Assembly: GCA_046563655.1 (NCBI GenBank)
Contig: CM102283.1
Coordinates: forward strand, 8,184,001-8,248,000
Direction: 5' to 3'
Source: Yuukianura sp. NJ FZ-2021
Lineage: Eukaryota
Length of the DNA: 64,000 nucleotides
The position numbers and the translations under genes were made by a program. Shown piece after piece: positions 56,301 through 64,000 of this stretch. Below the pieces are notes generated by a model. It worked only from the letters and a program-made list of their open reading frames with translations. It had not been told where the DNA came from and searched no databases. Numbering within the stretch: position 1 is the stretch's first letter; every line of letters starts with the position of its first letter.

Positions 56301-58772
56301 AGTCCTCGGCAAACGTTGATTGGGCCATCAGATAACAAAATTGGCTTCCAAAAATAAGATTTTTGTTTCCTACAGTTTAAAATTCAAAGTTACTAAACAG
56401 GTTAGAATGTTATGTCACAATTTTTTGCGTTTCTTACGAAGAGTGTCGCCCAATGTAACAAAAGCTTTCTGTTCCACCTCCGGCCGAATGCCAGCATTCG
56501 AAATTATCATAGCCAGATGAGGTTTCCAGTCACCAAAGGCATCGTCCATGCAACCCTGAACAAAAATTTGATCACAGCCAGTCCCAATTATTGAAAATTG
56601 TGTATGTGTATAGGACTTACCGTCATGGAAGATGGCACTCTGCCACTCATAATTTGATACAAAGTCTGCAGGGGGTGGTTGTAAGCCACTCCGTTGGCAA
56701 ATCGAGCCATGACCTGTCCATACTCTCGGTCGCCCATTTTTGATGCCAAGAAGAGCGCATGTCCCCATAACCCCTTCTGCATTGCGAATTCTACAAAAAT
56801 TAAAGAAATTGAGTTTGAATTTTTAAATGATCCAGAAATTAGAAAACTTCAATTTTGAAATCTTACCGAGAGCATCATTTCTGTGCCCAAACAACAACCG
56901 ATCGCAGAACCTCTGCGTAATTTTGGGGTCATTCGGTGGTGGCACTGGAGGTGGAACGATCAATGTTGACACTCCAGAGTCACGATCTTCGTCACCTTCA
57001 TCTTCCTGTTCTGAATTGTTTGATTCACTTTCTGCTCCACCGCCAACTTCTAGTCTTGCTTTCTTCTTGAGCAGGAGCTCAGCAATGTCTGATCCTACAA
57101 CAGACTGCAGAAGGAAATGTTTAGTAATTAGTAATTGAGCACAAAGTAATTAAGTAATCACTTACTCCGTTTTGTTTGATGAGTAGAATGAGCAACTCCC
57201 AGAGTAAAATAAGATTATCTTTGTCCGTTTGAAACTCTTGATTTTGAATGAACTTGATTTTCTTTTGACAGAACTTGATAACTGTATTCTTATGAGTTTT
57301 GCCTCGGACGAGTGGACCTGGAAAGGATTCGAGTTCTCGACTTTCCGGTAATTCGTGTAGAAGGGATTTGACCGAATGTACTTCTACTGTCGTCGAGCCA
57401 CGGGCCACTCGCAAAATTTGACCAAACGGGGTGATCAGACCTGCATAGAAAGGCACCACTGGTTGATCAGAATTTGCAGGGTAACTAGAACTCCAAATGT
57501 GTTATAGATTTAAGCTTTCTCACCAATAGCATGACCACTAGCAAACTTCTTTATAGCCAATTTCTCTGGAGGTGTATCTTCTGTAGTGGAAACAGAATCT
57601 ATCGGGACAAAACTTTGGTCAAATTCGGACTCATCCGATCTGAACTGATCTGTGTCGTCGAAATCAGGTTGATACAAACTCCCATTATTTCTGGAACTTC
57701 TTCCTGCAAAGTTTAAACATTTGCCTTATTAGTAATTAGTAAATAAGCATAAACCACTGTATTATTTCTTGATTTCCTTTACCTGATGGTGGTACAACTT
57801 TCTCTCTTCGTTCCCTGTCATCAAACTGACTTGGCTGCGAAGGATGTCGGAAGTGTATAGGTGTTCTTGTACCATCCCCATTTAGTGGTGGATAACGTGA
57901 CCCTGGATAATGTGGTTGATGGTGATCCGGCGCAGGTCCATAGCCAGGTACTGGTGGCTCTGGGATTCGATCGGGATGTTTCTTGTGTTCCTTGAACTTA
58001 TCGTACCATTCACGGTATCTAGCAGGGTCGCGGATTCGCAGTTCGTTCAAGTAAGCTATTTGCTGCTTAGATGGCTGTCGAGGAGATGGGAATCCTAACA
58101 GAAAAGTACAAAAACGGTTAATCGGAGGGCGACATGTCAGGAAAGAGCACAAAATGAGAAAATATTTCACCTCTTCTTGGCATGCTGTTAGTGCTGTACA
58201 TTCCTCCATACGACGGTTCCTGATAAAATTCTGATGGATTGTGTCTGTAATGGGGCTGTGGTGGTGGGCCATAACTGCGATCACGATCTCTACCATAATA
58301 CGGATCCATTGGTGGTATCGGCCCGGGTCTCCTTGGGCCGTAGTCGTTCGTATGATCGTAATATGGTTCACGGTACTCCCTTCCGCCGTAAGGATAGTCT
58401 ACAGGCGGAGGATCTCTTCCATAGTAGCCGTTTCTGGACCATGATCTTGGTTCATCAAAGTCCTGCGCTCCTGAATCCATGAACGAATTGGATCCATAGC
58501 CACTATTGTTAATTGCACTTGTCGAATGTCTTGTATCTCTGTCTCCTCTGGCAGATTTAGATCCGACGTTTCTTGGCCTATCTCCTGCTACTACTCTCTC
58601 ATTCAGCTCACCTATAATAACCCAGAAATCAATTAGTAATTTTCTTGCAAGTATCCTGATGTATATAAAATCAAATAGTAAGTCAGTCATTACCTGTTTC
58701 CAAGTACTGGTTCCGATCAGGTGCACTGGAAGAATCAAAGTTTCCAACTGGAACTGGACGTTCTCCGGACAT
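53394..58772 (-). CDS. SEC16: Protein transport protein Sec16
   Basis: Start MSGERPVPVGNFDSSSAPDRNQYLETG (ATG 58772); central conserved domain FPGPLVRGKTHKNTVIKFC, LLWELLILLIKQNG, GLWGHALFLASKM, PLQTLYQIMSGRVP, WKPHLAMIISN, TLGDTL, EATQMTEIYEYAMSL; C-terminal NQMILPDDKDPTIVWDENLKKW and KYVDVF. Confidence 0.92.
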
Positions 58773-60201
58773 TGTATTAAAAGCTTCTCCGTCCAAATCA
58801 GTATTCAACTCTATTTGGAGTCAATTATCTACAATTTATATCCACAACCAATAGTATAGGCCAATATTGTTAACTTACTATTAAAATTGCGCAGAACAGG
58901 GTGACACGACACCAGCTGTGTAAATTTAAGAAAAGAGGACGTAGGGGTAAATCGATACTAAGAAAAACCAATGGATGAATGACTACCGTAGTGTAGTTAG
59001 TACACGTCTCGTACGTACAGGATGACCTTGTTTATAGGTCAACTCTTTGCAATTGGGCTACTTTAACTAGACTAATTGATCCCTTAAGCTTACCTCTACG
59101 ATATCCCATATGCAAGAGAGCGACCAAAGTGTAGTAGTAGGAAATAATTTTAGTGCAAAAATTCAGTCTTATCTTCTCTGAGAGGTAAGTGTCCAACTCA
59201 ACGAGAAGTGGGGGGAGGGGTTTAGCAGGAACATGACAGATGAGAGGAAGAAGAAAGGTGGAGTCAAAACATCAGTAACTCAATATGCGGATCCCTGCAT
59301 TTGATAACTAATTTCACTAATTTGGCTAACTTAACTAATTAATTTAGCTTAAAACTTAATCGACATTGTGGTTGGCTCGACTAGAAGTTGCTGCTTATGC
59401 TTAACATATCAGCGCAAAATTGTCTACTTTTTTTTGAAATACCTTCATGAATTTGCGTCGGTTTAACGTAGTATCAGAGTATCAAGTTTTTAGTTTATTA
59501 AAAATACTTTGGGGAAAAGTACTTCTCACAAAAAGTAGCCACTTTTGTGGTCATAGAGATAAAAGTTCACAACAAGGCGATCTCGGTCAATTGATAGATT
59601 AGGTTTCAGGCGTAAACAATGTACCGGACAAGTAGCACGTCCTCAACATGTGTCAGGGCGTCCGCCTTTTACTTAAGGTGGGCGTGTCTTGGACGCGTCA
59701 CATGTATCTGTCACCTTGACTATATCCTCTGTGCCTGCTGTTATGTTGGTGTACTATTGTATTCACTCGATGATTGGGTGTACAAAAACTGTACTTAGTG
59801 CAGTTCAAGTCAAGTGCAAGGTGCTATCTATTCTATTTGGTATTTTATGCCTTGACTAAAATCTTTCATTTCTGGTTGTGCTGGGCTGGTTACTGATTAA
59901 TCGTGTATTACTATCCCACGTTACCAGTCAGCAGCCCCAGGAGGATTTTTTGAACTAATCTCTGTCATATGGTCGTGGAGAGGGGCCAGTTTATCTCATC
60001 TGTCCCATTGCGATTGCGTTGTTAAGTTTAACTTCTAATCGTAAACTGGGAATTAGTAATCTCTGGGCAGTTTCCTCCCACCATTATCTTTTTCAGGAGT
60101 TCAATTGTTGTACTAGTCAGTCGAGTCATCTTCCATTCGACGAATTGACGCAACAAGAGGAAACGAGAGGTCAACAACCAATCATTCTGTAGGGCAACAA
60201 A

Positions 60202-61834
60202 ATGCAAAATTTTATAGGAATTGCACAGCAAAACTTAGCCAGTACTGATGCAAAGGAAGACGCCCCCTGGTAAGTAAACTTAGCATTTATCAACTTACTA
60301 CATAATTGTGTTGATTAATGATGTAACGATTTCCATTCTTTGTGGTTTAGGTATGTGAAATATGGCGCGAGGGGATTTGGAACAATCGCTGGAGGATGTA
60401 AGCAGCAACTTTCTTTTTAACAAATACAAAATGCCTAACCAAAGTTGTTTCAATTTATGTTGTAGTGTCGATGCTGATGGGCGCGCTCAATGCAATTGCC
60501 AGCATATTGGATCCTCTGTGTATCGTACTAAGTATCTGGCAAGTGTAAGTTCAAATTACTTCAAGTTTTTCTTAAAATTAAAAAGCTGGGTCTGCTGGGT
60601 TAGGGTTAACTTCAGTATTTTATACTTGACTGTTCGTGTTCTATGTAATCTCAGGTTGGTCGGATTCCTGGTCATTTCTCTGGAATCTCCATGTTGCTGT
60701 TTCTTCGTTGAGCATGTCCAGACTATCACGCAGAAGATCGACTCTAAACCGTTGTATATGAAAGCAGCAGCATATATCATGTAAGAAAAGCAAACATTTC
60801 ACGAAGTTTTACGCGATAATATCCTTATTTTATCTTGTTGCAGAGCACCGTTACCGACGCTGTTGACATGCTTCGGATTTGCGACATTCTTTGGAAGCGG
60901 AATGATCGTTGCTGCTGGAGTCATGTACGGATTCATCGCTCTTGGCAAAAAGTGAGTCCTCAATGATACACTAACATTTAGCTTCTTTTGACTAACATTG
61001 TGTCGTACTTTGACTCAGTACTGATACTACATGGGCTTATACTACATGGGTTCAGTGTTAGCTTGACAGGCTTTTAACAGTTGTGACTCTTTTTTACGTT
61101 GTGTATAAGCAGAGCTCCACGGGAAGCCATGATGGCTACAGCTGCTGGTGGTGGTCAAATGGGCAATGGGCCACAACCTAATGTTCAAAACCAGAGCCTA
61201 GTTGATGACCCAGAGATCTGGGGGTCAAACAACTACTAACCAGAGTCCTTTTCCATACGTTTTTGTTTAACTTTTTCCTTACTGTGTTCTGTCTTGATTC
61301 TCTAACATAACTGAGAGTCCCGTTATCCATATCATTCCATTCCGAAATCAGTAGATTCTCGTAGTTCCTTTTATGTTTCCGACACGCATGCTTTTCTAAT
61401 ATTTCTATTAATTGCTTTCTGTTGATATTTATTTGATTACTTTTATTTATTTAGTAACCTAACTTTTTGTCTCTTTTAATTTTTCTTTCGGAAGAGCTTC
61501 ACGGGAAGAAATGGCTCGAAATGCTCAGACCATTCTTCCGACACACCACGAACCGCAGGACAAACGAACTCTCGTGGACAACCTTCAAGATCCAAATCCA
61601 TTCTCAGCACCATTCCCAGCCAAACCCAGTTACCCTGTAGTTGATTCCAGCAACAACAAAGGATTCGGTGGTCCACCACCACCATACACTGATCTACAAG
61701 CACCACCAACCAACATTACGAGTGTCCCAGTAGACTGGAATACTCCATTTGCTCCACCAAGTTCCAGTGTTACCAATGGAGGTTCTACAAACGTCAATCC
61801 AGTCTCGAGTAACCCCTACAATCCATTCCAGTAA
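60202..61834 (+). CDS. fwe: Calcium channel flower (CACFD1/Tvp18 family) with two alternative last exons
   Basis: Exons 60202-60269, 60351-60397, 60466-60544, 60655-60780, 60844-60951 give DAPWYVKYGARGFGTIAGG...VISLESPCCCFFVEH...KPLYMKAAAY...FGSGMIVAAGVMYGFIALGKK; last exon A 61113-61239 or B 61495-61834, both phase-compatible. Confidence 0.92.
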
Positions 61835-62277
61835 CTCAAATCAAAACGTTTCCTGTAACATAATTTTCGTTTAAGTCCAGGTTAGGTTAATTAACTTAAT
61901 CTAGCCTGATTCCTTAATTGCGATTTACAATTAACGACGCTAATTTAACGCACCCATTCCTACTCCGACTGAAGAGAACTGCGTAAACTTATTTAAAACA
62001 AGGAGTCAATTGAATTAGACAAAACCAAAATTTTGATTTCTGAGTTTTCCTAACCATAACGTTATGAAACCTTAAAATTGTGAAACTGAAAAACTTAGAA
62101 ATGAAAATGGAAAGTTCTTATTTTATAAAACGATTATGATTTAATTAAGCATGAACAGAGAGTGTCAAGTGATATCAAAATTATGGGTTATTGATCTCCC
62201 TTTATAACTTTCTATTCATGCCAAACCTATTGTTCTATCTGCCAACAATCATGGTATACATTTAACCAATCTTCCTG

Positions 62278-62344
62278 AATTATAATTATAACTTATAATT
62301 CCTTAAATTATAATTATAATCCCTCAATTATAATTATAATCCCT
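62278..62344. repeat. AT-rich TTATAA tandem microrepeat
   Basis: attataattataa(t/c) units repeated several times, separated by short CCT/CCC spacers. Confidence 0.6.
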
Positions 62345-64000
62345 GTCAACTTTTGTTTATGAAAATGACGACAGGTGGCATGCAAAGGAAGAAGTAAATT
62401 GTAGTTTGTCAATTGAGACGCACGTAAAACGTGTATAAAATTACGTGTTGCCGTCTAAATGTGTAACCCAAGAGGCTACACTAATCAGCAGAATCAGTAA
62501 ATACTTGTAACTAGCATGTGGTAATAACCTAAATAACATATTTAGTAAAACATTTTATTAAAATCCTTCGTAGAATGATGCTAAACTGTCACTGATTGGT
62601 TGACGACGGTACTGCTGTTGCCACTAAAAATCGTGTGTAGAGTTCAATAAAATGAGCGATTGCGAAATTGCGCTAAACGAAACCGAAACGTTTCCGAGTT
62701 GCCACTTTTTATTACTTTTGATTTTTGGTAGGATTGATTGAACTTACATAGTGGAGGTGACAATGCTAATTATGAATTTAGTTATGATTAATCAGGTGAC
62801 TAATCAAGTTGATTGTGCTAAATGCTGCTAATAATGCTATTAGAAGTGTCTATAAATTAAGAAAAGTGGACGTACGACTAGATTTTCTAAGGTCAAAACA
62901 GCGTCACTACGATGCTAAATTTCGTGAATCACAAGGAATTAATAGTTGATTGAAAAATTTGGAATTCTGATTGAACATGAATGTGTTTAGTACAGGAATA
63001 GCTTAAGTCCATTTCCCACCGTCAATTTCTTGTTGTTGACCTCTTGACCTTTGTCAGTTAGAGGTCAAAAGTGAGTTAACTCGATTTCTCAAGTTAGATT
63101 GCTAAAGAATCTTCCCTTGCATAAGGGATCCTAAGCTAAATAAGTTAAATTACCCACTAAAATCTAAAAGCTAACATTTTTCTAATTATTTTCTGGAGGA
63201 ATAATTGTTAAGGCTATGATGTTTCTTCGTCATCCAGCAAACACGAACATCTAAACACAAACTAAACTAAACAACGACAATTTCACTTTAACATTTAAAC
63301 ATCATAAACTCCCTGCATTGCACTTTTTAAACAAAAAGAAAACAGAAATTCAAAATTTCAAAAAGTCTAGGCTATTCTAACAAAGCACCTTCTATACTTT
63401 AACATTTATAGTCTATAACTTAATCTCGAGAGTTAATTATTGCAAAATTAGTTTGGTGGGATTTGGAGTGACTATTTTCTTAGTAATGGAGATCAACTTA
63501 CAAGGTGGATTTGGAATTAAGGAAATGCATTTGAATTGATTGGAATTACTCAATTACTTGGACTAGAGAAAAGAGAGTGACTTGGAATGAAAAGGTAAAT
63601 CAAATACCAAAACAAGTTGCTTAAGTTGCCTAAAAGTGTTGATTAAGCAGGGTAATTTAGCAGGAATGGTTCGTGCAAGACTCCAACTTTGTCCAGGGCT
63701 GCATAATGCTTCCACTATTTCTTCATCTTCATCTTTTTTTCACGTTTTGTGAAAAACGTTTTTCACAAGCTTGAATTTGGAATTTGAACAAATTTAAGTG
63801 TTGCTCAGTTCCTTCAAATCGCACAAAAATCCATCCGGTACCAAGATGTGAGTCGATCCTTAAAACAGAAAAAAATAGTTACAAAACTTATAAAATTTTT
63901 CAAAATTTTTTCAAAAATGTTAGAGTTGCATTGAAATCTGAAAAGCTGCTTACCAATAATAACTTCCCAATTCTTTGAAGCGTTGGTAACTTCATAGGCT

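Follow-up and report, generated by a model that had tools for sequence, protein, structure and literature searches.

Two alternative terminal coding exons in a springtail flower gene resemble the isoform-specific tails of Drosophila Flower

Introduction

The flower gene (fwe) of Drosophila melanogaster gives rise to several proteins through an alternative exon 5, namely isoform A (Ubi, 194 amino acids), isoform B (LoseA, 192 amino acids), and isoform C (LoseB, 157 amino acids). As set out in the running text of PMC13470650 and PMC13171429, residues 1-147 are common to the isoforms and exon 5 is the variable part, with A being the 194-residue Ubi form and RB the 192-residue LoseA form. Here we describe the flower gene found in a 64,000-nucleotide (nt) stretch of DNA from the springtail Yuukianura sp. 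NJ FZ-2021 (GenBank assembly GCA_046563655.1, contig CM102283.1, positions 8,184,001 to 8,248,000 of the forward strand), which is hereafter termed the window. In this gene, two terminal coding exons, designated A and B, lie downstream of a single splice donor, and the C-terminal tails that they encode resemble the two main tails of the fly protein.

The Flower field is divided between a view of the isoform tails as a "fitness code" and a view of Flower as a trafficking protein with poorly conserved non-canonical isoforms. In the literature text considered here, the marking of loser cells for elimination by the ratio of Flower isoforms is supported by functional genetics from flies and is more debated for mammals. 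The text of a 2026 review (PMC13470650) places both termini of fly Fwe in the cytosol, locates isoform PB on synaptic vesicles, credits it with rescue of the endocytosis defect at the neuromuscular junction, and treats PA as canonical. The same text describes the non-canonical isoforms of mouse and human as poorly conserved and lowly expressed. Other groups, as their view is reported in the text considered, place the C-terminus of Flower outside the cell.

The A and B pair is in itself already public, since RefSeq carries computed isoforms for the springtail Folsomia candida and for many insects. Neither full-text literature searches nor the passages considered of PMC13470650, PMC13171429, PMC10366549, PMC11655906, PMC5393565, and bioRxiv 10.64898/2026.08.14.743262 yielded a statement that other arthropods, or any animals beyond Drosophila, share the exon-5 alternatives of the fly.

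Results

The flower/CACFD1 gene lies on the forward strand at window positions 60202-61834 and is compact, with introns of only 63-161 nt (Table 1). All five donors read GTRAG, and every acceptor ends in AG. The fifth exon ends in …GGCAAAAA/gtgagt (the slash marks the exon boundary), which can also be given as …GCTCTTGGCAAAAA/gtgagt; it encodes …ALGK and contributes two bases to the codon that follows. There is a single donor here, at 60951, directly after the GKK pair, and two AG acceptors of the same phase follow it at 61113 and 61495. Acceptor A, at 61112/61113 (…ataagcag/AGCTCCACGGGAAGCC), opens a frame that runs to a TAA at 61237-61239, while the frame from acceptor B, at 61494/61495 (…ttcggaag/AGCTTCACGGGAAGAA), runs to a TAA at 61832-61834. 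Both acceptors are preceded by a pyrimidine tract, the longer being that of B, and over their opening 14 bases exons A and B show one mismatch (AGCTCCACGGGAAG versus AGCTTCACGGGAAG). Translation of the exons joined by coordinate yielded a protein of 184 amino acids when the five upstream exons were followed by A and of 255 amino acids when they were followed by B, with no internal stop in either. The first-pass annotation of this DNA had placed two same-phase acceptors after the exon ending at 60951, and its coordinates and translations proved exact. Read-through past the donor at 60951, into 60952-60954, would encounter a stop immediately and give a tail-less protein ending after GKK. An annotated isoform of the barnacle Pollicipes pollicipes, X3 (P0188), ends at the equivalent point (…GRK).

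Relatives were collected by an exhaustive, profile-free search with the full-length homologue P0003, which returned 201 proteins at E <= 0.001; the best 150 of the 201 were examined. Cluster look-ups and one further homologue search supplied names for part of these matches, and the relatives with an A-type tail were found through the P0003 search together with the cluster lists. Insects then supplied all sequences for the tail profiles (10 A tails and 22 B tails), springtails and crustaceans being left out, and 500 shuffles were scored for each window tail. Tail A of the window scored 20.2 bits on the insect A profile and 5.5 bits on the B profile, the best shuffle reaching 8.7 bits on the A profile. 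The first 45 residues of tail B scored 18.9 bits on the insect B profile and 7.4 bits on the A profile, with 7.5 bits for the best shuffle on the B profile. The assignment of the two tails by profile is reciprocal and clear, and the resemblance to the isoform-specific tails of the fly, pointed out in the earlier annotation, is by these scores both real and specific.

The same correspondence is seen in the motifs. Insect tails of type A end in …TLMEDPD[VI]WRP(T/N); the string TLMEDPD[VI]WRP is present in 10/10 non-redundant sequences and the exact string TLMEDPDVWRPT in 7/10. Tail A of the window carries the A-type end motif, which we defined in this analysis as [LM][VM][ED]DP[DE][VI]W. Insect tails of type B follow the pattern AS.E[ED]MR…[LI]V.NAQP[FVI]SFTG…DSNV, and the B-type motif AS.E[ED]M…[LI]V.N.Q.P.F is found in tail B of the window. 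Alignment with the fly proteins pairs the A type with isoform X2 of D. erecta, a 192-residue form, and the B type with isoform A of D. melanogaster (P0211, NP_648804, Ubi), whose tail reads …IVNNAQPFSFTG…DSNV. The first ~40 residues of the window B tail (ASREEM…DKRTLVDNLQDPNPF) correspond to …NDRAGIVNNAQPFSF… in that isoform. Tail A is identical at 25/39 aligned positions to the tail of Folsomia X2 and at 18/36 to that of D. erecta X2, and tail B is identical to the fly tail at 15/40. A Protein Atlas query with residues 140-192 of Folsomia X2 returned no usable match.

A second locus allowed the coding status of the two exons to be assessed. A metagenome scan with the B-tail alignment gave 297 pattern matches, among which a single relative, L001, was confirmed. 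L001 holds the whole gene, with exon layout, phases, and the order of A before B as in the window, and the AG of acceptor A is kept. Over the 142 codons of the core, synonymous divergence (dS) was 1.6 and the ratio of nonsynonymous to synonymous divergence (dN/dS) was 0.038. In exon A, 41/41 aligned residues were identical between the two loci, with 15 synonymous and 0 nonsynonymous substitutions, one indel of 3 nt, and a dS of ~1.0. By hand calculation, with site counts of S=26.7 and N=96.3, the chance of such an all-synonymous pattern under neutrality is ~1e-10. Exon B encoded 73% identical residues and had a dN/dS of 0.078. The introns and the interval between A and B aligned with L001 no better than shuffled controls. 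In a sensitive blastn comparison with L001, exons A and B were the sole conserved islands of flower 3' of exon 5, exon A being the best of the locus at 86% nt identity, and no third island that might represent a LoseB-like exon was found between exon 5 and the next gene. Given the all-synonymous change and the conservation confined to the exons, exon A is a selected coding exon whose frame is set by the donor at 60951. Exons A and B are both coding, and both are under purifying selection.

The shared core identifies the family. Exon 4 alone matched PF10233 (Cg6151-P) with 32.9 bits against a cut-off of 29.2 (E 8.4e-8), and exon 5 added a further 17.8 bits over profile positions 82-112; PF10233 was also found in the homologue P0003. 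Neither tail A nor tail B had a Pfam match. Two hydrophobic blocks, each two helices long, were located at approximately residues 35-84 and 102-141 (Kyte-Doolittle windows of 19 residues, mean >= 1.6), a hydropathy pattern that fits four hydrophobic helices in two pairs. When aligned with D. melanogaster isoform A, seven functional residues of the fly protein, K29, R33, E79, P81, Y109, K146, and K147, were all identical, at K26, R30, E75, P77, Y105, K142, and K143, respectively. The text of PMC13470650 and PMC11655906 assigns K29/R33 and K146/K147 to phosphatidylinositol 4,5-bisphosphate (PIP2) binding, proposes E79 as a selectivity filter, and also names P81 and Y109 as functional. By homology, the gene is the springtail orthologue of flower (fwe/CACFD1). 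Among the named matches, the nearest protein is the "calcium channel flower" of Folsomia candida, with whole-protein identities of 56% for the A forms and 50% for the B forms.

Both tail types are widespread. Among the matches listed, both forms occur as separate records in at least eight named hexapods: Folsomia candida, Musca domestica, Stomoxys calcitrans, Haematobia irritans, Loxostege sticticalis, Hermetia illucens, Periplaneta americana, and Drosophila erecta. The groups with both forms are thus a springtail, flies of several families, a moth, and a cockroach, to which a dragonfly and an ostracod are added by merged models; in Schistocerca, A was found in one species and B in another. 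In the merged models, the tail region splits into a first half resembling A and a second half resembling B. The respective scores on the A and B profiles were 69.6 and 75.4 bits in the tsetse fly Glossina morsitans (P0236), 22.3 and 36.5 bits in the dragonfly Ladona fulva (P0243), and 8.3 and 10.5 bits in the ostracod Darwinula stevensoni (P0070). Such fusion of A and B exons in public models (P0236, P0243, P0070), or misframing of exon A (P0002), is a recurrent annotation error.

The window, L001, P0002, and the merged Glossina, Ladona, and Darwinula models all have A before B. The shared donor with two acceptors is seen at the DNA level in the window and L001; for insects, the evidence comes from the proteins, whose tails diverge immediately past GKK. 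We read this distribution as placing the origin of the exon pair, with A preceding B, before springtails and insects diverged, and the pair is probably pancrustacean. The bryozoan Watersipora (P0041) has a single tail, with scores of 36.5 bits (B profile) and 1.0 bit (A profile), which suggests B as the older type; the A type has the appearance of a copy added upstream at a later time.

Table 1. Features of the flower gene, in window positions
Feature	Positions	Strand	Description
Exon 1	60202..60269	+	ATG (MQNFIGIAQ…) to donor CTG/gtaagt; start and donor also in L001 2480-2547
Exon 2	60351..60397	+	…WYVKYGARGFGTIAGG…; residues aligning with fly K29 and R33
Exon 3	60466..60544	+	Region of the first hydrophobic helix
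Exon 4	60655..60780	+	Cg6151-P domain core; …LESPCCC… motif; E75 aligns with fly E79
Exon 5	60844..60951	+	Last shared exon; …ALGK + AA/gtgagt; phase 2; K142/K143 align with fly K146/K147
Intron before acceptor A	60952..61112	+	Unconserved versus L001; read-through meets a stop immediately past …GKK
Alternative terminal coding exon A	61113..61239	+	41-residue tail APREAMM…SLVDDPEIWGSNNY; LoseA/PB-type
A-B interval	61240..61494	+	T-rich; terminates in the acceptor B polypyrimidine tract; alignment with L001 confined to the vicinity of the 3' end
Alternative terminal coding exon B	61495..61834	+	112-residue tail ASREEMARNAQ…DKRTLVDNLQDPNPF…PPPPY…NPYNPFQ; Ubi/PA-type with springtail-specific extension
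3' untranslated region after exon B (probable)	61835..62660	+	First canonical poly(A) signals: ATTAAA at 62557, AATAAA at 62646

Examination of the surrounding DNA revealed a tandem repeat at window positions 62278-62344, with three copies of a 20-nt unit, AATTATAATTATAATCCCTA, and 90% matches, in what is probably the 3' untranslated region (UTR) of flower or the region downstream. Head-to-head with flower, on the reverse strand at 57121-58804, is a homologue of Sec16; its open reading frame at 57121-57501 matches PF12932 (Sec16 mid-region, E 2.8e-11), and the proline/tyrosine-rich open reading frames at 57736-58804 are probably further parts of this gene. Two exons of the Sec16 gene are conserved in L001 (739-1125), and the neighbourhood is therefore syntenic with that locus. 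A further conserved island at window positions 63793-63999 corresponds to L001 6097-6276 with 80-82% nt identity; it is probably an exon of the next gene, and its position relative to flower is kept.

Discussion

We consider it likely, judging from sequence, that the window carries the springtail orthologue of flower with an ancient, selected pair of alternative tails served by one donor, and that the animal expresses both forms as mRNA. The choice of acceptor for the donor at 60951 would set the tail, with 61113 leading to the protein of 184 residues, its tail orthologous to the insect tail …TLMEDPDVWRPT, and 61495 to that of 255 residues, in which the first ~40 tail residues are orthologous to the tail of D. 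melanogaster isoform A. The tails may act as alternative docking peptides, directing a common membrane core towards distinct partners or routes of trafficking, and the A type would then be the form studied on fly synaptic vesicles.

For the two tails, different features bear on such a function. Tail A is constrained to an extreme degree, which points to a short motif by which it would dock to a conserved partner. The springtail-type B tails, which are common to a group of further relatives as well as the window (P0002-P0006, P0053, P0067, P0127, P0152), contain PPxY and at least one NPF in 10/10 sequences and end in NPF[QH] in 9/10; the insect B tails have no such PPxY/NPF extension and end in …DSNV. 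PPxY is a classical ligand of WW domains, as in Nedd4-type ligases, and NPF is a classical ligand of the EH domains of endocytic adaptors. An idea that we hold about as readily as its opposite is that the Lose-type tail is no invention of flies but the more constrained half of a pair at least as old as the pancrustaceans, that its acidic …DP[DE][VI]W end is an undescribed docking motif with a partner probably acting in synaptic-vesicle or endosomal trafficking, and that the switch was later co-opted by fly cell competition. The Lose-type tail is taken as the more constrained half because it shows no amino acid change between two springtails at a dS of about 1 and because of the invariant TLMEDPD[VI]WRP string of the insect A tails. 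A role in cell competition in this animal would be pure extrapolation from the fly.

Several observations weigh against the reading of an ancient and functional tail pair. The equation of tail A with the 192-residue LoseA/PB type is supported, but it passes through D. erecta X2 and the published lengths of the fly isoforms. When tail A alone (41 residues) was used in a word-based homologue search, one candidate was returned, and none was scored. Beyond approximately residue 45, tail B has no insect counterpart and lacks the insect …DSNV end. Among crustaceans, the scores of the Darwinula model lie near the best of 500 shuffles (8.9 and 10.1 bits) and are suggestive only, and in the copepods the A-like tail (Eurytemora, …NIMDDSDWQSNP) and the B-like tail (Caligus) come from different species. 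The one named chelicerate, the mite Tropilaelaps (P0035), scored 8.7 bits on the A profile and 7.5 bits on the B profile, a clear fit to neither. A comparison of the insect A and B profiles with hhalign gave a local match over the first 16 columns with P 5e-4 and a probability of 32%, and a global probability of 3%. Finally, the 255 nt following exon A (61240-61494) contain no hexamer within one mismatch of AATAAA, where ~3.6 would be expected from the density across the window, and no GTRAG donor.

The hhalign result bears on the origin of the pair. Within this gene, both tails begin with A[SP]RE.M and have, about 20-30 residues further along, a hydrophobic-acidic core (SLVDDP… versus TLVDNLQDP…), and they are identical at 13/33 aligned positions. 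Terminal-exon duplication is a plausible if weakly supported account, and the simplest, but given the weak paralogy signal between the profiles we do not claim it as demonstrated. The first-pass annotation had held that the switch arose by exon duplication and is conserved far beyond flies; the second part is borne out by Folsomia, several fly families, a moth, a cockroach, and the merged dragonfly and ostracod models, and the first part should be held at the strength just given.

The lack of both an AATAAA-like hexamer and a donor after exon A bears on where the isoform-A mRNA would end. By analogy with flies, this mRNA might end at a non-canonical site of its own before 61495, which we judge slightly more probable than a run-on to the distal site; non-canonical poly(A) sites do exist. 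The competing account, which we hold to be somewhat less than evenly probable, is that 61113 and 61495 are alternative 3' splice sites within one long terminal exon, such that the isoform-A mRNA would extend from 61113 to the signals near 62557/62646 and carry exon B as 3' UTR. The emptiness of 61240-61494 is what this account would predict; the corresponding interval of 359 nt in L001 likewise contains only AATCAA and AATAAG, and canonical signals begin only ~720 nt past the stop of exon B. On the other hand, the T-richness of the interval by itself depresses the count of A-rich hexamers, and the text of PMC13470650 describes the 3' UTR of D. melanogaster RB/RC as distinct from that of RA. 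A cassette-exon structure, with A spliced on to B, was also considered and is rejected on account of the stop that closes A and the lack of a GTRAG donor after it.

It is very improbable that B is the sole isoform made, with exon A surviving as a relic from the ancestral pair or as a non-coding element that is conserved and keeps an open frame. Among the matches listed, the full-length proteins of springtail type (P0003-P0006) are indeed all B-type, with Folsomia X2 (P0007) as the only A-type protein; clustering at 50% identity would, however, let a B form mask the A form of its own gene, and RefSeq does model an A-type isoform in Folsomia. A relic would also be hard to reconcile with 15/15 substitutions being synonymous at a dS of ~1, with the single indel being of 3 nt, and with the retention of the acceptor AG and its phase in L001. 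Chance or convergence of short, low-complexity, disordered peptides, rather than orthology, is if anything less probable still as the source of the likeness to the fly tails, for although the tails are short, their identity to the fly tails is modest, and Pfam is silent on both, the reciprocal scores stand far above the composition-matched shuffles with low cross-scores, the junction falls after GKK and the exon order is identical in both lineages, and intermediate taxa (Folsomia, Ladona, Periplaneta, Schistocerca) bridge the extremes.

An ancient pair of tails under selection matters for the dispute over Flower. By the evidence of this locus and its relatives, both main fly tails are old and selected in arthropods, and the LoseA type is the better conserved, which argues that each tail serves a basic function in cell biology. 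The short conserved peptide of the A type offers a handle for a partner search, and a comparative question is opened: outside flies, which of the two tails is neuronal and which is ubiquitous. For annotation, gene callers often fuse or drop exon A, as in Glossina, Ladona, and Darwinula and in the frame-shifted open reading frame P0002.

Among known systems, the vertebrate CACFD1/FWE genes (hFWE1-4, mFwe1-5) belong to the same family and encode the same Cg6151-P core, and splicing alters the C-terminus in some of their forms. Those variants differ from the springtail arrangement in that they arise by skipping of an internal exon or by frameshift, and vertebrate tails (…GKKGDAISYARIQQQ…) scored ~0 bits on both the A and the B profiles. 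The nearest named relative, Folsomia candida, has in one gene the same two tail types, both as RefSeq computed models: X1 (XP_021950698, 263 amino acids) is the B form, with a tail reading ASREEMVRNAQ…PPPSY…DPHNPFQ, and X2 (XP_021950701, 192 amino acids) is the A form, ending in …QSLVDDPEIWGQSTY. With whole-protein identities of just 56% and 50%, the window gene nonetheless represents a separate lineage. Compared with D. melanogaster fwe, the springtail gene has no recognisable poly(A) signal after exon A, and a counterpart of the short LoseB form was not found in the comparison with L001. The springtail B tail has 112 residues versus 47 in the fly, ends in …NPYNPFQ rather than …DSNV, and contains PPxY and NPF. 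The two genes are alike in their basic plan, with a core common up to GKK (K146/K147 in the fly, K142/K143 here) followed by an alternative terminal coding exon, tail B being of the isoform A/Ubi type and tail A of the 192-residue …LMEDPDVWRPT type.

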